A stretch of 64,000 bases of DNA from Bryobacterales bacterium (GTDB lineage: Bacteria > Acidobacteriota > Terriglobia > Bryobacterales > UBA6623): contig CBDBKC010000038.1 in NCBI GenBank assembly GCA_965206655.1, positions 831,430-895,429 on the forward strand, given 5' to 3'. Numbering within the stretch: the first letter of the stretch is position 1; each line of letters opens with the position of its first letter. The notes beneath the pieces are model-generated. The model searched no databases. It had not been told where the DNA came from and saw only the letters and a program-made list of their open reading frames with translations. Below are positions 30,071-37,639 of this stretch, piece after piece. Position numbers and translations under genes: made by a program.

Positions 30071-30888
30071 CCAAACAGCGTCCACAAATGAGTAAGCGAC
30101 TGAAAGATAAGATCGCGCTGGTGTCCGGCGCCGGCTCTGTGGGACCAGGCTGGGGCAACGGGAAGGCCACCGCAGTGCTGTTCGCCCGCGAGGGGGCCAC
30201 CGTACTGTGCGCCGATATCAACCGGGAGGCGGCCGAAGAAACCCGCGATATCATCCGCGGCGAGGGCGGCCGCGCCGAAGCATGGGAGTGCGACGTTTCC
30301 CAAGCCGATCAGGTCAAAGCCATGGCCGCCGGTTGTCTCGATCACTATGGCCGGATCGACGTGCTCCAGAACAACGTAGGAATCCTGACCGTAGGCGGGC
30401 CGGTCGACACCACCGAAGAAGACTGGGATCGGGTTCACGATGTGAACCTGAAGAGCATGTTTCTTACTTGCAAGTACGTCCTGCCGGTGATGGAGCGGCA
30501 GGGGAGCGGAGCTATCGTTAACATCTCGTCGATTGCGGGCCTGCGGCACCTGGGTGTCCCGTATCTCGCCTATAACACTTCGAAGGCGGCGGTAAGCCAC
30601 CTGACCCGAATGATCGCCGTGGAGTGGGCCCCGAAGGGAATTCGTTGCAACAGCGTGTCCCCTGGGTTCTTGCGCACACCGATGGTCGAGAAGTCGCTAG
30701 CGGACCACTATGCCGACGGTGATGTCGACGAGATGTTCCGCAAGCGCGCAGCGCTTGTCCCCATGGGACGAGGCGGTGACGCCTGGGACGTTGCCTACGC
30801 TTCGCTGTACCTTGCCTCGGACGAGGCGAAATACGTCACAGGCGCCGATCTCGTGGTCGACGGCGGGCTGACCGTGAAGTGCGTGTAA
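30067..30888 (+). CDS. Short-chain dehydrogenase/reductase (SDR); alternative start at 30088
   Basis: ALVSGAGSVG Rossmann motif, NNVG, Y-x3-K (YNTSKAA). Confidence 0.85.
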   Translation: MTKQRPQMSKRLKDKIALVSGAGSVGPGWGNGKATAVLFAREGATVLCADINREAAEETRDIIRGEGGRAEAWECDVSQADQVKAMAAGCLDHYGRIDVLQNNVGILTVGGPVDTTEEDWDRVHDVNLKSMFLTCKYVLPVMERQGSGAIVNISSIAGLRHLGVPYLAYNTSKAAVSHLTRMIAVEWAPKGIRCNSVSPGFLRTPMVEKSLADHYADGDVDEMFRKRAALVPMGRGGDAWDVAYASLYLASDEAKYVTGADLVVDGGLTVKCV

Positions 30889-31129
30889 GGGCCAACTCGT
30901 CAAAGCTGCGCACTTGGATTCGGCCGCGCCGATCATGTACGCTGAAATCACGCCGGGAGACAATTTTTTCTGATTTAGCTATTGACACCACTGCTAAGTG
31001 GTGTTACTATTCTCTTGTTCGGAGGAAACCATGTTGCTACACGCCTATAAATCGAGGTTCCACATGCCTCATTGGTGCGGTCTCTTTGAGTCACCGTATG
31101 CCGGCGTGAGCGGACGCTCCGGACTCCAC

Positions 31130-31202
31130 TCGGATATAGCTCAAATGGATAGAGCATCAGGCCATAACCTGACTGTCACGGGTTCGAATCCCGTTATCCG
31201 CC
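31130..31202 (+). pseudogene. Degenerate tRNA-like gene (canonical D- and T-arms, but 6-nt anticodon loop 'ccauaa' and U1·C72 mismatch); possibly a decayed tRNA-Met/Ile2
   Basis: Manual fold: GCUC-AAAUGGAUA-GAGC D-arm, ACGGG-UUCGAAU-CCCGU T-arm, no CCA; anticodon stem UCAGG/CCUGA closes only 6 nt. Confidence 0.35.
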
Positions 31203-31444
31203 TGACTCGAAATCAGGCTTAACCAAGAGTGAACCGGGCCGCGTTTCGGCCGCCTGTCCTCGCGGTTTGAGGACGGCCGGCAGCGCCGCCTCGGCTCTGT
31301 GCTTCCGTTGAAACTGCCGGCCGTGATGCGGGTGAAGTATGCCCGCGGCTCGTCCGGCTCTAGCTGAAGCCCGCCATAGGCTGCGTGAAGCGCGGTTCGG
31401 GGATCTCAATTCACAGAAAGACTTTGCTACGAGGAGGTGCTGTC

Positions 31445-32557
31445 ATGATTCGTCGAATTATTGTGGGGGACAACGAGCGCGCCGTGTTGATTCGCAAGCG
31501 GCGCTTCGAATCGATTCTCACGCCGGGATCTTACTGGGTTTTCGGCCCCGGCGTCGAAATCGAAGCCTTCAACATTCGGCATCCGGAGTTTTCGAGCGAG
31601 TGGGCTGACTTCGTTGCCACGCAGCGGCCGGATGTCGGGTCGGAGCACTTCACGGTGATCGAGACCGGCGACTCGGAAGTTGCGGTCGTTTACTTCGACG
31701 GCAAGCTTGCTCGTGTCGTTGGTCCCGGTACGCGGACTCTTTACTGGCGCGATTCGGCTGACGTGACGTTCGAGGTGATCGACGTTGTGGCCGAGCCCGA
31801 GGTGCCGACGAAACTGGTGGCGGCTCTTGCCCGCCGGGGCGGGGAGTCGTTCGCGAACTTCGTTCTGGTGGAAGACGGTATGCAAGCCCTCGTTCATCTC
31901 GATGGACAACTGATCCGCGAGTTGGGGCCGGGCGCGCACGCCTTCTGGACCGCGGTCGCTCAGCCGAAGGTGACGTTGAGCGATCTGCGGCGTCAGACGC
32001 TTGAAGTAACGGGTCAGGAAATCCTGACGGCCGACAAGGTTGGCGTTCGAGTCAACGTCTCGGTTGTATACGAGGTCGTGAACGCGGTTGCGGTGCGTGC
32101 TGGTGTGACCGATGTCCGGGAGCACCTGTATCGGACGGTACAGATCGCTGTTCGTCAGTACCTAGGCAAGCGGACGCTTGAAGAGATGCTGGCGGAGAAG
32201 ACGGACCTCGATGCGGCGGTTGCGGAGACGGTTCGGAGCGACATGGAACCCGTCGGCGTTCGAGTGCGAGTCATCGCCCTCAAGGATGTTGTTCTGCCGG
32301 GCGATGTCCGGGAGATCATGAACCAGGTCGTGACTGCGGAGAAGCAAGCGCAGGCCAACCTGATTCGACGTCGAGAGGAGGTGGCGTCGACGCGTTCGTT
32401 GCTCAACACGGCCAAGCTGATGGGTGAAAACCCCATTCTGGTGCGGCTCAAGGAGCTCGAGTCACTCGAGCGGATCGCCGAGAAGGTGGAGAAGATCACC
32501 GTTGTCGGCGGAATGAATGCGCTCCTGGAGCGCACGGTGAGTATCCGGCCTGAATGA
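31445..32557 (+). CDS. SPFH/band-7 (stomatin/prohibitin-like) domain protein with N-terminal extension
   Basis: C-terminal half (…QEILTADKVGVRVNVSVVYEV…DVREIMNQ…) is SPFH-like; SD GAGGAGG before ATG 31445. Confidence 0.65.
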   Translation: MIRRIIVGDNERAVLIRKRRFESILTPGSYWVFGPGVEIEAFNIRHPEFSSEWADFVATQRPDVGSEHFTVIETGDSEVAVVYFDGKLARVVGPGTRTLYWRDSADVTFEVIDVVAEPEVPTKLVAALARRGGESFANFVLVEDGMQALVHLDGQLIRELGPGAHAFWTAVAQPKVTLSDLRRQTLEVTGQEILTADKVGVRVNVSVVYEVVNAVAVRAGVTDVREHLYRTVQIAVRQYLGKRTLEEMLAEKTDLDAAVAETVRSDMEPVGVRVRVIALKDVVLPGDVREIMNQVVTAEKQAQANLIRRREEVASTRSLLNTAKLMGENPILVRLKELESLERIAEKVEKITVVGGMNALLERTVSIRPE

Positions 32558-32619
32558 GGCCGGTGAGCAAAGGGGGCCGGCGCGTTTGGCGCCGGCCCCG
32601 GATCGGGAAGCAAGCGCAG

Positions 32620-32722
32620 GCCGTGAAAAAACGGGGACTGTACCAAGCGCCGCCGCGTAACTGCTTTGTTCGCGGCGCTCACAAGCGGCGCGCCGTGGAC
32701 TGTCCCCAGTTTTTTCACAGCG
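32620..32722. repeat. MITE-like palindromic element, copy 2 (inverted orientation)
   Basis: About 90% identical to the reverse complement of copy 1. Confidence 0.7.
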
Positions 32723-32740
32723 CCTCAGGCGGAGTTACGC

Positions 32741-32816
32741 GCAGGGTTGGTGTAAGCGGGCAGCATGGCGGATTCCAAACCCGCCGGTGGAGGTTCGAGG
32801 CCTTCACCCTGTGCCA
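32741..32816 (+). tRNA. tRNA-Trp (anticodon CCA)
   Basis: Manual cloverleaf: acceptor GCAGGGU/ACCCUGU, G73, encoded CCA, T-loop UUCGAGG; anticodon stem has one mismatch. Confidence 0.65.
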
Positions 32817-32859
32817 GAAGTTTGTGGTCTTTGACAACCGAATAGCCGTAAGAATTCGT

Positions 32860-32934
32860 TGCGGGATAGCTGGAGTGGCTCCAGTCCGGTCTCATAAGCC
32901 GGTAAGGGCGGTTCGATTCCGCCTCCCGCAACCA
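32860..32934 (+). tRNA. tRNA-Met (anticodon CAT; elongator or Ile2-type)
   Basis: Acceptor UGCGGGA/UCCCGCA, anticodon loop CUCAUAA, T-arm GGCGG-UUCGAUU-CCGCC, CCA encoded. Confidence 0.75.
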
Positions 32935-32950
32935 TTTTCGGAACAGGAAG

Positions 32951-33050
32951 GTGTGAAGAAATCGGGACTGTCACAAGCGCGGGCCAAAGCACTCGCCGGT
33001 TCGCAAGCGCTGACTGAAGCGCGGTTGACTGTCCCAGCATTTTTTCGCAC
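32951..33050. repeat. MITE-like palindromic element, copy 3 (diverged)
   Basis: gggactgtc … gactgtccc with aaa/ttttt flanks. Confidence 0.55.
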
Positions 33051-33059
33051 CTTCAAAAT

Positions 33060-33134
33060 GCCGGAGTCGTTCAACAGATAGGACCCTGGGCTTCGAACCC
33101 AGTGATGCGGGTGCAACTCCTGTCTCCGGTTCCA
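33060..33134 (+). tRNA. tRNA-Arg (anticodon TCG), non-canonical D/T loops
   Basis: Acceptor GCCGGAG/CUCCGGU, anticodon arm CUGGG-CUUCGAA-CCCAG, D-loop AACAGAUA (no GG), T-loop UGCAACU (G55), CCA encoded. Confidence 0.6.
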
Positions 33135-33138
33135 GTTT

Positions 33139-33218
33139 GGCCGTGTAGCTCCAATTCGGTAGAGCGTCCGGTTGAAGCCCGGAGCCTTGTGCTGGTTCGA
33201 TTCCAGCCGCGGCCACCA
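33139..33218 (+). tRNA. tRNA-Phe (GAA)
   Basis: Anticodon loop UUGAAGC, canonical T-loop UUCGAUU, A73-CCA; slightly long D and variable loops. Confidence 0.75.
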
Positions 33219-33224
33219 GTTTTC

Positions 33225-33299
33225 CGGCAGGTAGCCCAATGGCAAGGCGCCTGACTGTTAATCAGACCGATGGAGGTTCGAGTCCTCCCCTGCCGGCCA
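33225..33299 (+). tRNA. tRNA-Asn (GTT)
   Basis: Anticodon loop CUGUUAA; T-arm GGAGG-UUCGAGU-CCUCC; CCA encoded. Confidence 0.85.
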
Positions 33300-33312
33300 A
33301 GCAAATTGTCGA

Positions 33313-33389
33313 GGACCTGTAGCCAAGTGGAAAGGCGGCCGGCTGCAACCCGGTCTATGCGTTGGGTTCGATTCCCACCGGGTCCTCCA
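33313..33389 (+). tRNA. tRNA-Cys (GCA)
   Basis: Anticodon arm GCCGG-CUGCAAC-CCGGU; U73; CCA encoded. Confidence 0.8.
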
Positions 33390-33409
33390 ACAGATGTAGA
33401 GAAGATCGT

Positions 33410-33484
33410 TCGGAGATGGTGCAACAGGGAGCACGGGTGGCTTTGACCCATCGAATCCTGGTTCGAGTCCAGGTCTCCGATCCA
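33410..33484 (+). tRNA. tRNA-Gln (TTG)
   Basis: Anticodon loop CUUUGAC; T-arm CCUGG-UUCGAGU-CCAGG; CCA encoded. Confidence 0.8.
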
Positions 33485-33500
33485 AAGTTCGAGGAATCGC

Positions 33501-33578
33501 GGACCGTTGGCGCAGTCCGGCAGTCGCGCTCGGTTGTCAGCCGAGAGGTCGTGGGTTCAAATCCCATACGGTCCGCCA
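33501..33578 (+). tRNA. tRNA-Asp (GTC)
   Basis: Anticodon arm CUCGG-UUGUCAG-CCGAG; G73; CCA encoded. Confidence 0.8.
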
Positions 33579-33779
33579 GAGCTTGGGTGACGGGGAGCGT
33601 GGAGGGGGATCCCAGAAATGCTCAGGGGACGTCGCCCAATTCGATCTGGCTTAGGCGGTCTGGCTGCAATCAACAGATCACCGGCATCATCGGCCTTCGG
33701 CCGAGCTTGGAGATCGCGCACAGCGCGACCCGGCACGGCACAGCCGCGCGCCACAAAGCTTGTCGCGTTTCAGAGTTGA

Positions 33780-33854
33780 GCGTCCTTGGTGTCAACGGCA
33801 GCATGAAAGCCTTCCAAGCTTAGGGTGTCGGTTCAAATCCGACAGGACGCTCCA
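33780..33854 (+). tRNA. tRNA-Gly (TCC)
   Basis: Anticodon loop CUUCCAA, U73, T-arm GUCGG-UUCAAAU-CCGAC, CCA encoded. Confidence 0.7.
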
Positions 33855-33855
33855 T

Positions 33856-33933
33856 CAGGGTGTAGCTCAGTTTGGCCAGAGTTCCCGCCTTGGAAGCGGG
33901 ATGGCGTTGGTTCGAATCCAACCACCCTGACCA
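33856..33933 (+). tRNA. tRNA-Pro (TGG)
   Basis: Anticodon arm CCCGC-CUUGGAA-GCGGG; A73; CCA encoded. Confidence 0.85.
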
Positions 33934-33954
33934 CTTTTGTGGATTCCTAATTGT

Positions 33955-34029
33955 GGGTTCGTAGTTCAACAGCAGAACGGGTGACTTTTAATCATCACAA
34001 TGAGGGTGCGAATCCTTCCGAGCCCACCA
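33955..34029 (+). tRNA. tRNA-Lys (TTT), non-canonical D/T loops
   Basis: D-arm GUUC-AACAGCA-GAAC (no GG), anticodon loop CUUUUAA, T-loop UGCGAAU (G55), CCA encoded. Confidence 0.65.
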
Positions 34030-34030
34030 T

Positions 34031-34106
34031 GGGCCTATAGCTCAATTAGCAGAGCGCCTGCCTTGCAAGCAGGAGGTCGCGAGTGCAACTCCCGCCAGGT
34101 CCACCA
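34031..34106 (+). tRNA. tRNA-Ala (TGC), non-canonical D/T loops
   Basis: G3·U70 present, anticodon arm CCUGC-CUUGCAA-GCAGG, variable AGGUC; D-loop AAUUAGCA (no GG), T-loop UGCAACU (G55). Confidence 0.6.
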
Positions 34107-34117
34107 ACTTTGTTTGT

Positions 34118-34193
34118 AGGTCTATAGCTCAACCGGCAGAGCACCCGGTTCTTACCCGGGAGGTTGGGGGTTCGACGCCCTCTGGGCCTACCA
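34118..34193 (+). tRNA. tRNA-Lys (CTT)
   Basis: Anticodon arm CCCGG-UUCUUAC-CCGGG; canonical UUCGACG T-loop; CCA encoded. Confidence 0.75.
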
Positions 34194-34209
34194 AGTTTCT
34201 TGGAGCTTG

Positions 34210-34318
34210 TGCGAGGGCGAAAAACTGGGGACAGTCCACGGCGCGCCGCTTGCGAATGCGGCAAGCAGAGAAGTGACAGGGGCGGCGCTTGGTACAGTCC
34301 CCGTTTTTCGCGGGTTCG
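34210..34318. repeat. MITE-like palindromic element, copy 4
   Basis: …gaaaaactggggacagtcc…ggtacagtccccgttttt…. Confidence 0.7.
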
Positions 34319-34338
34319 ACGCCCGGCCCACAAAGTTC

Positions 34339-34415
34339 GGCCTTGTAGCCCAACCGGCAGAGGCGGCCGTCTCAAAAGCGGCGCAGTGAAGGTTCGAATC
34401 CTTCCAGGGCCACCA
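34339..34415 (+). tRNA. Class-I (short variable loop) tRNA with anticodon CAA (Leu codon UUG); isotype uncertain
   Basis: Anticodon arm GCCGU-CUCAAAA-GCGGC (perfect), 5-nt variable loop, canonical GAAGG-UUCGAAU-CCUUC T-arm, A73-CCA. Confidence 0.5.
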
Positions 34416-34485
34416 AGGTTTTGGCTGTGATGAAGGGGAGCGGTTGACGGCGGGACCGCTCTCTGACGATTACGGCTCGGTTTTT

Positions 34486-34562
34486 GCCTCGCTGATGGAA
34501 TTGGCATACATACCTGTCTTAGAAACAGGGTCTTCCAGGTTCGACTCCTGGGCGAGGTACCA
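34486..34562 (+). tRNA. Class-I (short variable loop) tRNA with anticodon TAG (Leu codon CUA); isotype uncertain
   Basis: Anticodon arm CCUGU-CUUAGAA-ACAGG (perfect), variable GUCUU, T-arm CCAGG-UUCGACU-CCUGG, A73-CCA. Confidence 0.5.
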
Positions 34563-34571
34563 ATTTGAAGT

Positions 34572-34654
34572 GGGTCGTACCGCGTGGCGCGGAAGCGGGC
34601 TGTAACCCCGCGGCTCGACGAGCACCGCTGGTTCGATTCCAGCACGACCCACCA
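34572..34654 (+). tRNA. tRNA-Tyr (GTA), class II
   Basis: Anticodon arm GCGGG-CUGUAAC-CCCGC, long variable arm GGCUCGACGAGCAC, A73-CCA. Confidence 0.7.
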
Positions 34655-34661
34655 CAGTTTC

Positions 34662-34738
34662 GGGCGTGTAGCTCAACGGAGAAGAGCAGGCGGCTTCTAC
34701 CCGCCCGGCTGGGGGTTCGAATCCTCCCACGCTCGCCA
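34662..34738 (+). tRNA. tRNA-Arg (TCT)
   Basis: Anticodon arm GGCGG-CUUCUAC-CCGCC; G73; CCA encoded. Confidence 0.8.
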
Positions 34739-34833
34739 AGAAAAAAGGGGACAGTCCACTTCGCGCCTCTTGGGGGTCCGGAGACGACCGCTGAGCCTTT
34801 AGGTGGCGCTCGGTACAGTCCCCATTCTTCTTG
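34737..34833. repeat. MITE-like palindromic element, copy 5
   Basis: caagaaaaaaggggacagtcc…ggtacagtccccattcttcttg. Confidence 0.65.
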
Positions 34834-34845
34834 AAGCCAAGAGAT

Positions 34846-34920
34846 TCTGGGTTAGCGTAACGGCAGCGCGGGCCGGCTGTGAACCGGTCGGAGTCAGTTC
34901 GAGTCTGACACCCAGTACCA
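34846..34920 (+). tRNA. tRNA-His (GTG)
   Basis: Anticodon loop CUGUGAA; irregular 5' acceptor end (possible -1 nucleotide) as usual for tRNA-His; CCA encoded. Confidence 0.65.
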
Positions 34921-34921
34921 C

Positions 34922-34997
34922 GGGGCAGTAGTCCAAGCGGATAGGATGCAGGGCTTTCAACCCTGCGATGAGAGTTCGATTCTCTCCTGCCCTGCCA
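34922..34997 (+). tRNA. tRNA-Glu (TTC)
   Basis: Anticodon arm CAGGG-CUUUCAA-CCCUG; G73; CCA encoded. Confidence 0.8.
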
Positions 34998-35002
34998 AGT
35001 CC

Positions 35003-35078
35003 GGGAGCGTAGCTCAGTCAGCAGAGCGTACGTCTGATATGCGTGAGGCCGAAGGTGCAATTCCTTCCGCTCCCACCA
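35003..35078 (+). tRNA. tRNA-Ile (GAT), non-canonical D/T loops
   Basis: Anticodon loop CUGAUAU; D-loop AGUCAGCA (no GG); T-loop UGCAAUU (G55); A73-CCA. Confidence 0.65.
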
Positions 35079-35085
35079 AGTCTGT

Positions 35086-35163
35086 TGCGGGTTAACTCAG
35101 CCGGGTCAGAGTGCCTCTCTTACAAAGAGGAAGTCAGGGGTTCGAGTCCCCTACCCGCTACCA
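35086..35163 (+). tRNA. tRNA-Val (TAC)
   Basis: Anticodon arm CCUCU-CUUACAA-AGAGG; U1·U72 mismatch; CCA encoded. Confidence 0.75.
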
Positions 35164-35167
35164 ATTC

Positions 35168-35176
35168 GCCCTCTTA
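35168..35176 (+). pseudogene. 5' acceptor strand plus positions 8-9 (gccctct-ta) of a tRNA-Thr split by IS630 insertion
   Basis: Complementary to the 3' acceptor AGGGGGC at 36330-36336; TA at 35175-35176 is duplicated at 36273-36274. Confidence 0.5.
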
Positions 35177-36272
35177 CTGAGTCCCGCATAATATTCAGTT
35201 AATCGAACGACAAAGAAGATTGCTTCCAAAAGGCGGCGATCAAGCGCCGTTTGCGGCGCATGCGGCGCAAAGTCGTGCGTGCCCGCTCGTCGAGCTCCCA
35301 GTAGTCGTTGGGGCAGACGTTGGGCAACTCGTGCTGCTTCCAGTAGGCCCAGATGTATTCCACCGGATTCAGCTCCGGGGCGTAGCCCGGCAAGTACTCG
35401 GTCTCGATGTGGCCCTGCGACAACGCGATGAACTCGCGCACCAACGCGCTGCGATGCGCCGGCAAGCGATCCCACACGATCAGCAACGGACGTTGTATGT
35501 GGCGCAGCAGCGCCTTGAGGAAATCGATCACCTCGGGACCGCGGATGGCGTCGGGATAGAGACGGAAATAGAAGTTGTGGAAAGTGATTCCGGCCGCCGC
35601 CGAGAGCTTCTTCCAGTTGAAGTTGAACTGCAGTACGGGCGTCTGCCCGCGCGGCGCCCAAGTACGGCAGCGATGTGGCTTCTGGCTCAGTCCGCTTTCG
35701 TCGATGAAGACGATCGTGCGGCCCTGCTTTTGCGCTTTTTTTTAATGGCGGGCCAAGTCTTCTTCTGCCAAGTCTGAATCGCTTCCTCGTTGCGCTCGCG
35801 GGCCTTGCCGACCGGCCGTTGCGGGCTCCAATGCAGCGCCCGCAGTAGCTTCCAGACGTGGCCTTCGTGGTAGCGCACCCCGAAACGGTCGCGGATCAAC
35901 CGCGCCACCCGCGGACAGCTCCACAGCGGTGTCGGGAAGCCGTGCGCTTCGGGTCCTTCGAGCAGCAGCCCTTCCAGCTCGGCGAGCTGCGCGGCGCTCA
36001 GCAACGGCTTGCGGCCGGCGCGACCGGCTTTGGCTAGCCCGGCTCGGCCGTCTTCGCGGTAACGCTGCACCCAGCCGCTGACGCTTTGTTGGGCGGCTTG
36101 GACTCTACGCGCCGCCTCAGCTTGGCTCAGTCCTTTTTCCACGACCAGCCGCACCGCCTCGATGCACCGCTTCTCCAGCGCCGCAAAGTCTCGCTTCACG
36201 CCTTTTGGAAAACCCATATCCAAAAGACGTCGCTCCATTACAAAAGGTTACCCTATATTATGCGGGACTCAG
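35177..36272 (-). mobile_element. IS630-family insertion sequence (1096 bp) with ~22-bp terminal inverted repeats and a TA target-site duplication
   Basis: Left end ctgagtcccgcataatat… versus right end …atattatgcgggactcag; flanking TA/TA. Confidence 0.8.
35199..36238 (-). CDS. IS630-family DDE transposase encoded in two frames joined by a predicted -1 ribosomal frameshift at A_AAA_AAG (35735-35743)
   Basis: N-terminal HTH ORF 35687..36238 ends …WPAIKKKRKS*. The -1 frame continues …KKAQKQGRTIVFIDESGLSQKPH… into ORF 35199..35531 (DDE region …LPGYAPELNPVE…). Confidence 0.75.
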
Positions 36273-36340
36273 TAGTTCAATGGGAGAACCGCTGTCTTGT
36301 AAACAGCCAATGGGGGTTCGATTCCACCCAGGGGGCTCCA
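36273..36340 (+). pseudogene. 3' portion of tRNA-Thr (TGT) (D-arm through CCA) separated from its 5' acceptor strand by the IS630 insertion
   Basis: ta-GUUC-AAUGGGA-GAAC, anticodon arm GCUGU-CUUGUAA-ACAGC, irregular T-stem, …AGGGGGC-U-CCA. Confidence 0.6.
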
Positions 36341-36350
36341 AGTTCGACGC

Positions 36351-36442
36351 GGAAGGATGGCCGAGTCCGGGAAGGCATTGGCCTGCTACGCCAAGGTGGG
36401 GCCGAAAGGCCCTCGGGGGTTCAAATCCTCCTCCTTCCGCCA
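36351..36442 (+). tRNA. tRNA-Ser (GCT), class II
   Basis: Anticodon arm UUGGC-CUGCUAC-GCCAA, long variable arm, G73-CCA. Confidence 0.85.
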
Positions 36443-36464
36443 AGTTTTGAAACAGCAAGTCTCG

Positions 36465-36554
36465 GGAGAGTTGGCCGAGCGGGAAGGCTCCGGTTTTGAA
36501 AACCGGTGACGTGTCGAGACGCACGCGGGGGTTCGATTCCCTCACTCTCCTCCA
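36465..36554 (+). tRNA. tRNA-Ser (TGA), class II
   Basis: Anticodon arm CCGGU-UUUGAAA-ACCGG, long variable arm, CCA encoded. Confidence 0.8.
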
Positions 36555-36628
36555 AACACGACGGAGTGACTTGACTCCTCCAGGCGGGTACCCATTGGCG
36601 TATACTCCAGGCTCGGAGGTCCGCTGGC

Positions 36629-37639
36629 ATGAGCACGTTGGAGCGAAGACAATTTCTGAAGAGGTCCGCCGCCCTCGGGATCGGTCTCTCGATCGTTTCC
36701 TCTGAGGCATTTGGCGCGGGCTCCGACAGGGACGTGAATCAGGGTTTTGCCGCGCTGCGAAAGCGATTGCGCGGCGTCCACAACTTTTTGACGACGCCCT
36801 TCCGGTCTGACTACACGTTGGACACCGAGGGCTTGCGGCAAAATGTAGCTCACCACGCCCGCGGTGACGTCGGCGACATGACGATCGTTGTGGGCGGCGG
36901 GCTCGGTGAGTTGTTCACACTCAATGCGGACGAGCAGAAAGCCATGGCCGAGGCCGCTGTCGCCGGCGCACAAGATAAGCTGCCGGTCGTTGTCGGCGCC
37001 GGAGGCGGTTACGGAGCGGCGCTTCGCATGGCCCGTAACGCAGAGGACGCCGGGGCGGATGCGATTCTTCTGTTTTCGTCCCCCTACGGCAGCGGGGATG
37101 CGGAGGGCGCTTACCGCTACTTCAAAGACATCGCCGACGCTGTGAAGATCGGAGTTATCCTCTACCCCCGCGGGAAGGAAGAGCACTGGGCCGAGACGAT
37201 CCGCCGGCTCACGGAGACGCCCAATATCATCGGGTTCAAGGACGCCAGCGGAGGGATCGCGGTCGGGGAGTCACTAGGCGCGCTTGTCCCCGATAACTTT
37301 CTCTGGATCGCCGAAGGAGAGGAACACGCCGTCAAGGCGTTCCCGGCAGGCGCCAGGGCCTACACGAGCGCTGTCGCCGTTTTCGTTCCGGAACTCTGCC
37401 GGCAATTTTGGGAAGCCGGTGTCACCGGGCGTCTTGATGAGATGAACAGCACTCTTCGCGACAAGATCGACCCCGTCGTCGCCTTGCGTCGGGTGAGAAC
37501 GGGCTACGGAATCAGCGCCATAAAGGTTGGCCTCGAAGCACTGGGGCGCGCGGGCGGACCGGTTCGGCCGCCGGGCACGGTAGTCCTTCCAGAGGACCGA
37601 GAGAAAATAGCTGCAATCGCGCGGCGGTATTCGAAGTAG
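36629..37639 (+). CDS. Tat-exported DHDPS/N-acetylneuraminate-lyase-family (DapA-like) class I aldolase
   Basis: RRQFLKRSAALGIGL Tat motif; GGGLGELFTLNADEQ and IIGFKDASGG (Schiff-base Lys) motifs. Confidence 0.7.
   Translation: MSTLERRQFLKRSAALGIGLSIVSSEAFGAGSDRDVNQGFAALRKRLRGVHNFLTTPFRSDYTLDTEGLRQNVAHHARGDVGDMTIVVGGGLGELFTLNADEQKAMAEAAVAGAQDKLPVVVGAGGGYGAALRMARNAEDAGADAILLFSSPYGSGDAEGAYRYFKDIADAVKIGVILYPRGKEEHWAETIRRLTETPNIIGFKDASGGIAVGESLGALVPDNFLWIAEGEEHAVKAFPAGARAYTSAVAVFVPELCRQFWEAGVTGRLDEMNSTLRDKIDPVVALRRVRTGYGISAIKVGLEALGRAGGPVRPPGTVVLPEDREKIAAIARRYSK

Follow-up and report, generated by a model that had tools for sequence, protein, structure and literature searches.

What is a run of tRNA genes specifying all 20 amino acids doing among the metabolic genes of a Bryobacterales chromosome, and how did it come to be there? 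We addressed this question in a 64,000-nt stretch of DNA (contig CBDBKC010000038.1 of assembly GCA_965206655.1), here called the window, in which a slipin (Band-7) gene, itself preceded by a tRNA-like gene, is followed on the same strand by a dense tRNA gene array. The answer that we favour, and hold to be reasonably probable, is that the array is a long supernumerary tRNA operon of the kind termed L-array or tRNA array unit, which was gained once behind the Band-7/slipin gene with its predicted b7a-tRNA (for band 7-associated tRNA), has been inherited since, is selected yet dispensable, and was then invaded by miniature inverted-repeat transposable elements (MITEs) and an IS630-family insertion sequence (IS); it would serve as a reserve pool of tRNAs.

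ARAGORN called 24 tRNA-type genes in the window, of which 23 are intact array genes on the + strand at 32741-36554 and the remaining one is an odd tRNA-type gene at 31130-31202. Against the Rfam tRNA model RF00005, 22 of the 23 exceed the gathering score: 21 do so in a whole-window scan, and tRNA-Leu(UAG) joins them in a more sensitive regional scan. The sole intact array tRNA without such support is tRNA-Tyr, whose best match within the clan is tRNA-Sec at 35.6 bits, below the tRNA-Sec gathering score. A partial RF00005 match at 36272-36329 is the 3′ part of a 24th gene, a tRNA-Thr(UGU) split by the IS. The genes are listed below in order with the evidence for each; orthologues are those in loci that were fetched around slipin homologues and then scanned for tRNAs, the closest being L083.

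32741..32816, + strand: tRNA-Trp(CCA) (ARAGORN, Rfam, orthologues)
32860..32934, + strand: tRNA-Met(CAU), elongator-like, with no 1:72 mismatch and no GGG/CCC in the anticodon stem (ARAGORN, orthologues)
33060..33134, + strand: tRNA-Arg(UCG) (ARAGORN, Rfam, orthologues)
33139..33218, + strand: tRNA-Phe(GAA), variable loop of 7 nt, anticodon arm also in phage-like tRNA arrays (ARAGORN, orthologues)
33225..33299, + strand: tRNA-Asn(GUU) (ARAGORN, Rfam, orthologues)
33313..33389, + strand: tRNA-Cys(GCA) (ARAGORN, Rfam, orthologues)
33410..33484, + strand: tRNA-Gln(UUG) (ARAGORN, Rfam, orthologues)
33501..33578, + strand: tRNA-Asp(GUC) (ARAGORN, Rfam, orthologues)
33780..33854, + strand: tRNA-Gly(UCC) (ARAGORN, Rfam, orthologues)
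33856..33933, + strand: tRNA-Pro(UGG), CGG anticodon in orthologous arrays (ARAGORN, Rfam, orthologues)
33955..34029, + strand: tRNA-Lys(UUU) (ARAGORN, Rfam, orthologues)
34031..34106, + strand: tRNA-Ala(UGC) with G3:U70 (ARAGORN, Rfam, orthologues)
34118..34193, + strand: tRNA-Lys(CUU) (ARAGORN, Rfam, orthologues)
34339..34415, + strand: 77-nt tRNA of class-I size, Leu anticodon CAA with a short variable arm and A73 (ARAGORN; orthologues in L083, L085 and L088)
34486..34562, + strand: 77-nt tRNA of class-I size, Leu anticodon UAG with a short variable arm and A73 (ARAGORN, regional Rfam, orthologues)
34572..34654, + strand: tRNA-Tyr(GUA), aberrant, with long D-stem, tiny loop and short variable stem (ARAGORN; orthologues in L083 and L088)
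34662..34738, + strand: tRNA-Arg(UCU) (ARAGORN, Rfam, orthologues)
34846..34920, + strand: tRNA-His(GUG), with U1.U72, A73 and U at -1 (no G-1:C73) (ARAGORN, orthologues)
34922..34997, + strand: tRNA-Glu(UUC) (ARAGORN, Rfam, orthologues)
35003..35078, + strand: tRNA-Ile(GAU) (ARAGORN, Rfam, orthologues)
35086..35163, + strand: tRNA-Val(UAC) (ARAGORN, Rfam, orthologues)
35168..35176, + strand: 5′ fragment of tRNA-Thr(UGU), 9 nt, GCCCTCTTA, ending in the TA target site
36273..36340, + strand: duplicated TA, then the 3′ part of tRNA-Thr(UGU) including CCA (partial Rfam match)
36351..36442, + strand: tRNA-Ser(GCU), class II (ARAGORN, Rfam, orthologues)
36465..36554, + strand: tRNA-Ser(UGA), class II, CGA anticodon in orthologous arrays (ARAGORN, Rfam, orthologues)

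An earlier note on this DNA had counted about 24 tRNAs in about 3.8 kb, which agrees with the 23 intact genes and one split gene found here in 3.81 kb. It was too cautious on two points: CCA is encoded in all 24 genes rather than in nearly all of them, and the array covers 20 amino-acid specificities (19 by intact genes, with one or two genes per amino acid) rather than about 18. The spacers of 1-40 bp that it described are the rule for 17 of the 23 (1-43 nt) but not for the others, which measure 70, 107, 125, 145 and 201 nt, and the Thr gene is interrupted by the 1096-nt IS; the longer spacers are explained by inserted elements. All 24 genes have cloverleaf structures and lie on the + strand in no repeated (periodic) pattern, at a density of 6.3 genes per kb, or 8.8 per kb without the 1.1-kb IS. 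Tran et al. 2016 (PMC4758250) define a tRNA array unit by a minimum of 20 tRNA genes and of 2 such genes per kb; the array lies inside these bounds and also has the structural features of an L-array (Santamaria-Gomez et al. 2021, PMC8421152), being uniform in orientation, operon-like and not periodic.

The spacer between tRNA-Asp and tRNA-Gly (201 nt, 33579-33779) is approximately 80% identical in L083 and corresponds to 7 nt in L088. It has no tRNA, Rfam or MITE similarity, the regional Rfam scan included.

The homologues of slipin place the window in Bryobacterales, Acidobacteriota. The probable history of the array can be read from the related loci, which compare with the window as follows.

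L083: slipin identity 93%; 25 tRNAs; same insertion point and flanking metabolic genes as the window
L090: slipin identity 83%; 16 tRNAs
L085: slipin identity 80%; 15 tRNAs; different flanks, with an opposite-strand Uma2 gene between slipin and array
L087: slipin identity 80%; no tRNAs
L086: slipin identity 78%; 2 tRNAs, only Met and Asp left
L088/L089: slipin identity 73%; 23 tRNAs; different flanks
L092: no slipin within 1.5 kb upstream; 23 tRNAs; same gene order
Remaining 13 Bryobacterales/Acidobacteriota slipin loci (L003-L013, L017, L023): slipin identity 46-72%; no array within 10 kb

The gene order of the array is common to five other Bryobacterales loci (L083, L088/L089, L092, L090 and L085), and the distribution among relatives is sprinkled, the array being present, shortened or absent. 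In a neighbour-joining tree of slipin the array-bearing loci form one clade that also holds L086 and L087, so that one ancestral gain followed by losses is the simplest history. These sequence comparisons fit best with a single gain of the array in the ancestor of a Bryobacterales sub-clade, followed by vertical descent and losses. The synteny comparison that the earlier note had proposed found the array confined to this sub-clade rather than conserved across the phylum, and supports the view that the array is accessory rather than core.

The earlier note had also regarded such arrays as often horizontally mobile, a suggestion that finds no support for this one as a recently mobile unit, since L083 carries the array in the same place between the same flanks, one ancestral gain is enough, and the MITEs and the IS arrived later. 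The corresponding explanation, that the array is recently acquired cargo of a mobile element (a prophage, an integrative and conjugative element (ICE) or an IS-flanked transposon), has in its favour that L-arrays elsewhere spread by horizontal transfer (PMC8421152, PMC4758250), that the b7a-tRNA/slipin/array module has other outer surroundings in L085 and L088, and that phage-like arrays carrying ribonucleotide reductase, thymidylate synthase and tmRNA have an identical tRNA-Phe anticodon arm; nothing beyond this arm and the varying outer context hints at a foreign origin. Yet no integrase or phage gene adjoining the array was found in the window annotation, and the lone IS, sitting inside a tRNA gene, does not bound a mobile unit. 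Base composition, a check that the earlier note had recommended, does not differ between the array and its surroundings, a scan of viral contigs with tRNA-Phe and tRNA-Leu(CAA) patterns gave 0 matches, and a tblastn search of a phage collection with slipin gave none. With the insertion point shared by L083 and a slipin tree that fits a single old gain, we consider recent mobile cargo very unlikely; the array is not a recent import.

A 24-nt stretch of tRNA-Phe, AGAGCGTCCGGTTGAAGCCCGGAG (window 33157-33184; 3′ side of the D-stem plus anticodon arm), matches 11 metagenome contigs (L091 and L093-L100 among our loci), all of which carry clustered tRNA genes, 2 to 31 per locus. Nine of the 11 are not orthologous to the array, and the phage-like genes mentioned above occur in some of these. 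Deep common ancestry with the phage-like arrays was considered and rejected: similarity is confined to the Phe arm and extends neither to the remainder of tRNA-Phe nor to the other tRNAs, and proteobacterial slipin-linked arrays lack the arm.

If the array has been inherited, has it also been maintained? Most of its tRNAs are 83-100% identical to their orthologues, and 93-100% to those of L083 alone. Overall tRNA identity to L083, L085 and L088 is 0.95, 0.87 and 0.89, as against 0.80, 0.57 and 0.50 at four-fold degenerate sites of the adjacent slipin gene. Changes in stems, scored against the window structures, comprise 66 double compensatory, 82 one-sided pair-keeping and 21 pair-breaking changes. 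Because the array tRNAs are far better conserved than the slipin four-fold sites, they must be under purifying selection, and yet the array is evidently dispensable, relatives having trimmed or lost it. The features expected of decoding tRNAs are kept: discriminator bases and the G3:U70 pair agree with the anticodons, and where orthologues differ in anticodon (Pro, Ser, Gln), U34 and C34 are exchanged without a change of amino acid. The two tRNA-Lys genes of L085 (13410-13484 and 13567-13642) have their UUU and CUU anticodons swapped relative to the bodies in the other arrays; together with the switches in Pro, Ser and Gln, this swap shows that position 34 is labile in these arrays.

The array cannot support translation alone, because it has no initiator tRNA (its single CAU tRNA lacks initiator features) and its 24 anticodons read, under standard wobble, only 43 of the 61 sense codons, which make up approximately 70% of codon usage in 11 neighbouring genes. 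Most used among the 18 unread sense codons are GGC, GCC, GTC, CTC and CGC. L088 has a canonical stand-alone tRNA(CAU) at a distance of 6 kb from its array; as the canonical stand-alone tRNAs of related loci also encode CCA, the encoded CCA is not distinctive of the array. A core housekeeping tRNA operon would account for the 20 amino acids, the encoded CCA and the strong sequence conservation, but not for the missing initiator, the unreadable codons, among them the most frequent GC-ending ones, the absence or reduction of the array in close relatives, or the toleration of a disrupted tRNA-Thr(UGU); moreover, the Rfam scores of the array tRNAs (43-66 bits) and their aberrant structures are unlike those of canonical tRNAs of related loci. 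We find this explanation scarcely credible, and the accessory character proposed in the earlier note is supported.

The aberrant tRNAs that the note had anticipated are indeed present: two class-I-sized tRNA-Leu, the tRNA-Tyr not matched by the general tRNA model, and a tRNA-His that lacks G-1:C73. Bacterial tRNA-Leu normally belongs to class II. The atypical features of Leu, Tyr and His are conserved among orthologous arrays; the class-I-sized Leu(CAA) is kept in L083, L085 and L088 with compensatory changes, and the Tyr in L083 and L088. Atypical members such as these (the D-arm of the Tyr being Sec-like), the physical linkage of the array to a tRNA-mimic RNA gene and the sponge role proposed for the Anabaena operon (PMC8421152) would suit a non-translational role, in which the tRNAs would be less decoders than sponges or decoys that occupy tRNA-cleaving toxins, or else substrates or ligands of a Band-7/b7a-tRNA particle. 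The conservation of discriminator bases, of G3:U70, of the long tRNA-Ser arms and of the anticodons speaks against it, and confinement of anticodon changes to same-amino-acid U34/C34 switches is the pattern expected of decoding tRNAs. We judge a mainly non-translational role less probable still than recent mobile cargo. Similar 'Leu' tRNAs of 75-79 nt occur in unrelated arrays (L014-L016, L028, L029, L036, L050 and L093-L096).

The earlier note had described four palindromic repeats of approximately 100 bp in the array and a fifth far away; all five are real, and an IS630-family element accompanies them.

32621..32722, - strand: MITE-like hairpin repeat copy 1, confined to the window lineage (the orthologous site is empty in L083 and L088)
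32950..33052, - strand: MITE-like hairpin repeat copy 2, a diverged copy likewise confined to the window lineage
34212..34316, + strand: MITE-like hairpin repeat copy 3, with an orthologous copy in L083
34738..34836, + strand: MITE-like hairpin repeat copy 4, occupying the place of tRNA-Arg(ACG) in L083
6676..6785, + strand: MITE-like hairpin repeat copy 5, intergenic, far from the array
35177..36272, - strand: IS630-family IS, 1096 bp (Pfam domains, terminal repeats, TA duplication)

Four of the five repeat copies in the window thus cluster in the roughly 3-kb array region, all in spacers and none within a tRNA gene. They are approximately 100-110 nt long, with imperfect inverted ends (GTGAAAAAAC(T)GGGGAC...GTCCCCGTTTTTTCAC), and fold into long hairpins (-42 to -62 kcal/mol, z-scores -2.7 to -6.1) that, being bracketed by A-runs and U-runs, resemble two-way intrinsic terminators. 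Copies 1, 2 and 4 are absent in L083 and copy 3 is shared; L083 in turn has a private copy between Asn and Cys. The repeats are short and non-coding, with inverted ends, several copies and presence/absence polymorphism at orthologous sites, as expected of MITEs. Filled and empty sites gave no consistent target-site duplication, no parent autonomous element was seen, and the repeat ends are unrelated to those of the IS630 element, so that the repeats may fairly be called 'MITE-like' and, just as well, repetitive extragenic palindromic (REP)-like or terminator-like palindromes. An intergenic region of L086 (4370-4575) holds related hairpin repeats, GTGTGAAGAAATC..GGGAC ... GTCCC..GATTTCTTCACAC; the MITE-like family therefore has sub-families across the Bryobacterales clade.

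The assignment of the IS to the IS630 family, made in the earlier note, stands on its size, its 18-bp perfect terminal inverted repeats (CTGAGTCCCGCATAATAT), the TA duplication at 35175-35176 and 36273-36274, and a transposase that combines DDE_3 (PF13358, 1.8e-25) with N-terminal helix-turn-helix domains (HTH_33/32/28) once the frames on either side of a frameshift at an A8 run are joined. Its proposed position at the distal end of the array does not stand: it is a single copy in the window, inside tRNA-Thr, with two tRNA-Ser genes downstream. In silico excision joins GCCCTCTTA (35168-35176) to 36275-36340 and restores a full, CCA-bearing tRNA-Thr(UGU) that shares 99% identity with its intact counterpart in L083. 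The insertion is not an assembly artefact, because it is also present in the independent assembly GCA_047516085.1 (L001; 99.7% identical), whose contig breaks inside the IS. The knock-out of tRNA-Thr(UGU) is tolerated. The MITEs and the IS630 element are later, partly lineage-private invaders and not the vehicle of the array.

Such invaders raise the alternative that the array is a decaying relic, functional in an ancestor but in this genome broken up transcriptionally by terminator-like MITEs and the IS, and heading for loss. The presence in a 3-kb operon of one IS and four hairpin/U-run elements, three of the MITE insertions being lineage-private, points in this direction, as do the tRNA-Arg(ACG) of L083 that is missing at the site of MITE copy 4, the disrupted Thr(UGU) and the progressive loss in relatives, from 16 tRNAs in L090 and 15 in L085 to two in L086 and none in L087. 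Against decay, the 23 remaining genes are intact and most are 93-100% identical to those of L083, compared with 0.80 at four-fold sites, and the MITEs have spared every tRNA gene. We regard the relic as unlikely, though it deserves more weight than mobile cargo.

How would a long supernumerary tRNA operon be expressed and used? The region upstream of the array contains the following elements.

30982..31010, + strand: sigma-70-like promoter TTGACA-17-TACTAT, whose hexamers enclose a conserved, operator-like palindrome, ACCAC-N6-GTGGT
31017..31129, + strand: conserved structured leader RNA upstream of the tRNA-like gene (15-locus alignment)
31130..31202, + strand: tRNA-like gene, predicted b7a-tRNA (ARAGORN; Rfam tRNA, 49.4 bits)
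31203..31444, + strand: structured region from the tRNA-like gene to the slipin start codon (10-locus alignment, long-range stem)
31445..32557, + strand: slipin/Band-7 (SPFH) gene, 370 aa (Pfam PF01145, E = 2.6e-29; homologues named slipin family protein)
32572..32599, + strand: GC-rich hairpin just after the slipin stop codon, terminator/attenuator candidate without a U-tract

The promoter is the only promoter-like site in 30800-36700 and is conserved in the aligned Bryobacterales slipin loci; its operator-bearing pattern occurs in 12 fetched loci, once each and always upstream of the tRNA-like gene. The latter lies 243 nt upstream of slipin on the same strand and keeps its acceptor, D and T arms, while its anticodon loop is hypervariable, differing from nearly every genome to the next and measuring 6 or 8 nt in some. 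RNAalifold predicted 41 pairs, 24 with compensatory changes, for the leader including the tRNA-like part (15 loci), and the region at 31203-31444 has 39 predicted pairs, 13 with compensatory changes (10 loci). Apart from the tRNA itself, no Rfam family matches the leader or the 3′ region. The GC-rich hairpin is found after slipin in six of six aligned loci, with a sequence that L083, L085 and L088 share and from which L086 and L087 depart; a 53-nt segment that includes it folds at -33.9 kcal/mol. An exact-match search with the window slipin protein, under either of two start choices, returned nothing, and one with DHDPS returned short contigs only. PADLOC returned no defence-system model for slipin, the IS open reading frame or DHDPS.

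The tRNA-like gene is the middle of a covariation-supported RNA region of approximately 430 nt (30982-31444), made up of the promoter, a 110-nt 5′ domain, the cloverleaf and a 3′ domain of approximately 240 nt, which is also found upstream of slipin in L003-L005, L007-L011, L017 and L083-L088. This region may be a larger non-coding RNA or a 5′ untranslated region that partners the Band-7 protein. A conserved small open reading frame over the leader and the tRNA-like gene (a 63-aa gene is called in L084) was rejected on the grounds of frame-shifting indels and of covariation, which points to RNA structure.

We propose that the array was acquired once by the ancestor of the Bryobacterales sub-clade, directly downstream of a Band-7/slipin gene preceded by the b7a-tRNA, and would have been inherited with slipin since; in the window lineage the hairpin MITE family would then have colonised the spacers before the IS630 element split tRNA-Thr(UGU). 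Transcription of the array would yield a polycistronic precursor and, in the simplest case, would start at the operator-bearing promoter that precedes the b7a-tRNA/slipin unit and read through into the array. In L083 the slipin hairpin and tRNA-Trp are only approximately 25 nt apart, too close for an array promoter to fit between them. RNase P and 3′ nucleases would process the precursor, CCA being encoded already. The product would be a reserve of structurally atypical tRNAs, likely a pool for translational stress or tRNA damage, on which the cell could draw when housekeeping tRNAs or the ribosome are compromised; possible triggers are tRNA-cleaving toxins, phage or competitor nucleases and translation inhibitors. 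Such a pool would complement the RNA-repair role predicted for the linked Band-7/b7a-tRNA/RtcB systems.

That last connection comes from the wider neighbourhood of slipin, which we examined in a set of loci fetched with the slipin alignment and whose neighbouring open reading frames were clustered. A same-strand tRNA-like gene lies within 700 nt upstream of slipin in 67 of 84 loci, which span Acidobacteriota, Alpha-, Beta- and Gammaproteobacteria and Chloroflexota. The RNA ligase RtcB is encoded directly downstream of slipin in at least 17 proteobacterial loci, the nucleotidyltransferase RlaP is present in six loci (an E. coli locus included), and an HNH endonuclease gene stands between tRNA arrays and the tRNA-like gene in about 11. 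At least four tRNAs are present in 18 of 86 slipin loci and at least ten in eight. Among the papers searched we found none that links tRNA arrays with Band-7/slipin, Burroughs & Aravind 2016 being represented here by the works that cite it.

From these neighbourhoods a bolder proposal can be drawn, in which the array is a working arm of a cross-phylum 'repair-or-replace' island: Band-7, a b7a-tRNA within a larger RNA, repair by RtcB/RlaP and replacement by L-type arrays with HNH would be coupled and horizontally shared, and Bryobacterales would have the replacement arm behind Band-7 under the operator promoter, with nuclease-resistant non-canonical tRNAs (class-I Leu, Tyr with a Sec-like D-arm, His without G-1). 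We offer this extension as tentative, a possibility on which we would not rely.

Among L014-L082 a neighbourhood recurs across phyla that is made up of tRNA array, HNH endonuclease, tRNA-like gene, Band-7/slipin, RtcB and sometimes RlaP; L036 (Stellaceae) has 26 tRNAs on the opposite strand. E. coli STEC639 (L101, CP061233.1 611814-613738) carries a two-gene cassette of slipin and RlaP between the rluF-adjacent DUF3811 gene and lysC, a site at which some E. coli strains carry this cassette; neither ARAGORN nor Rfam found a tRNA-like gene in the 530-nt gap upstream of the L101 slipin.

Several observations weigh against the view that we prefer, a reserve operon read through from the slipin promoter. 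The strong hairpin after the slipin stop codon and the U-run hairpins of the MITEs would be expected to stop read-through, so that the array in this genome may be poorly or only piecemeal transcribed, and a second copy of the operator promoter before any array was looked for in the fetched loci and not found. The linkage of slipin and array is frequent but not obligatory: an opposite-strand gene splits the two in L085, and the array of L092 has no slipin within 1.5 kb upstream. Neither RtcB (by tblastn) nor RlaP nor HNH was found in the window or in the Bryobacterales loci. Finally, that the array is supernumerary to a complete host set we infer from the array itself and the related loci that were read.

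Elsewhere in the window, an Acido-Lenti-1 RNA match (477-522, - strand, 43.2 bits) lies inside a set of direct and inverted repeats at 251-1173, in which 274-383 pairs with 1064-1173, 291-336 with 479-524, and 251-281 with 533-563 and 1042-1072; several copies of the motif apparently stand side by side there.

Taken as a reserve operon, the array shows that such a unit can be retained for long by vertical descent and purifying selection despite being dispensable, and it offers testable cases of conserved non-canonical tRNAs. The neighbourhoods described above tie tRNA arrays physically to Band-7/b7a-tRNA/RtcB genes in several phyla, a linkage that supports the idea that spare tRNA operons are part of the response to tRNA damage or translational stress.

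Among known systems, the upstream unit corresponds to the predicted Band-7/b7a-tRNA/RtcB RNA-repair systems, to which the name b7a-tRNA belongs (Burroughs & Aravind 2016, NAR 44:8525, as reported in bioRxiv 10.1101/312249 and PMC6514570). It shares with them a slipin gene with a same-strand tRNA-like gene upstream, and homologous proteobacterial loci continue with RtcB and RlaP; the window, in contrast, lacks RtcB/RlaP and has a 24-gene tRNA operon in the downstream place. A further difference is that the Bryobacterales tRNA-like gene is embedded in the structured RNA of approximately 430 nt with its own operator-bearing promoter.

The array itself most resembles the L-arrays, which are supernumerary, silent and patchy among relatives (PMC8421152). 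That of Anabaena sp. PCC 7120, the trn operon, is switched on by translational stress and by antibiotics that target the ribosome, promotes survival, shares its regulation with rtcB and lies beside an HNH gene (PMC8421152). Common to both are more than 20 tightly packed same-strand tRNA genes for nearly all amino acids without periodicity, a patchy presence in relatives, atypical tRNAs and, as we infer for the array here, a supernumerary status; the homologous proteobacterial modules found here have RtcB and HNH neighbours that resemble the genes described near cyanobacterial L-operons. The differences lie in the acidobacterial host, in the lack of adjoining HNH or rtcB in Bryobacterales, in the position downstream of a Band-7/b7a-tRNA unit, in an apparently vertical descent within the clade and in a palindromic operator instead of TrcR-type direct repeats. 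One survey lists Acidobacteria among phyla with only accretive arrays (PMC8421152), and the arrays of the 2016 survey come from Firmicutes, Cyanobacteria, Actinobacteria and Gammaproteobacteria, plus a few from other groups (PMC4758250); an acidobacterial L-array is therefore new to both, and the present one extends L-type arrays to Acidobacteriota.

The tRNA array units of Acidithiobacillus, Mycobacterium and Firmicutes (Tran et al. 2016, PMC4758250; Morgado & Vicente 2018, PMC5966550; Yano et al. 2026, PMC12803027) agree with the array in size and density, in structural differences that lie mainly in the D, anticodon and variable arms and, presumably, in redundancy with the chromosomal set. 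They are found on ICEs, plasmids and phages or, in Firmicutes, beside rRNA operons, and the mycobacterial arrays, viewed as possible anti-defence devices, have an embedded HNH gene; the array here is instead chromosomal, lies among ordinary metabolic genes and contains no HNH gene. Phage tRNA clusters (PMC10264068, PMC11555353, PMC11464382) likewise combine clustered tRNAs with altered anticodon domains, and phage-like metagenomic arrays share the identical tRNA-Phe anticodon arm; unlike them, the array is chromosomal, without phage genes around it and not found in viral collections. Phage tRNAs replace host tRNAs that are cut by defence nucleases (PMC10264068, PMC11555353); an analogous function of the array would serve the cell and not the phage.

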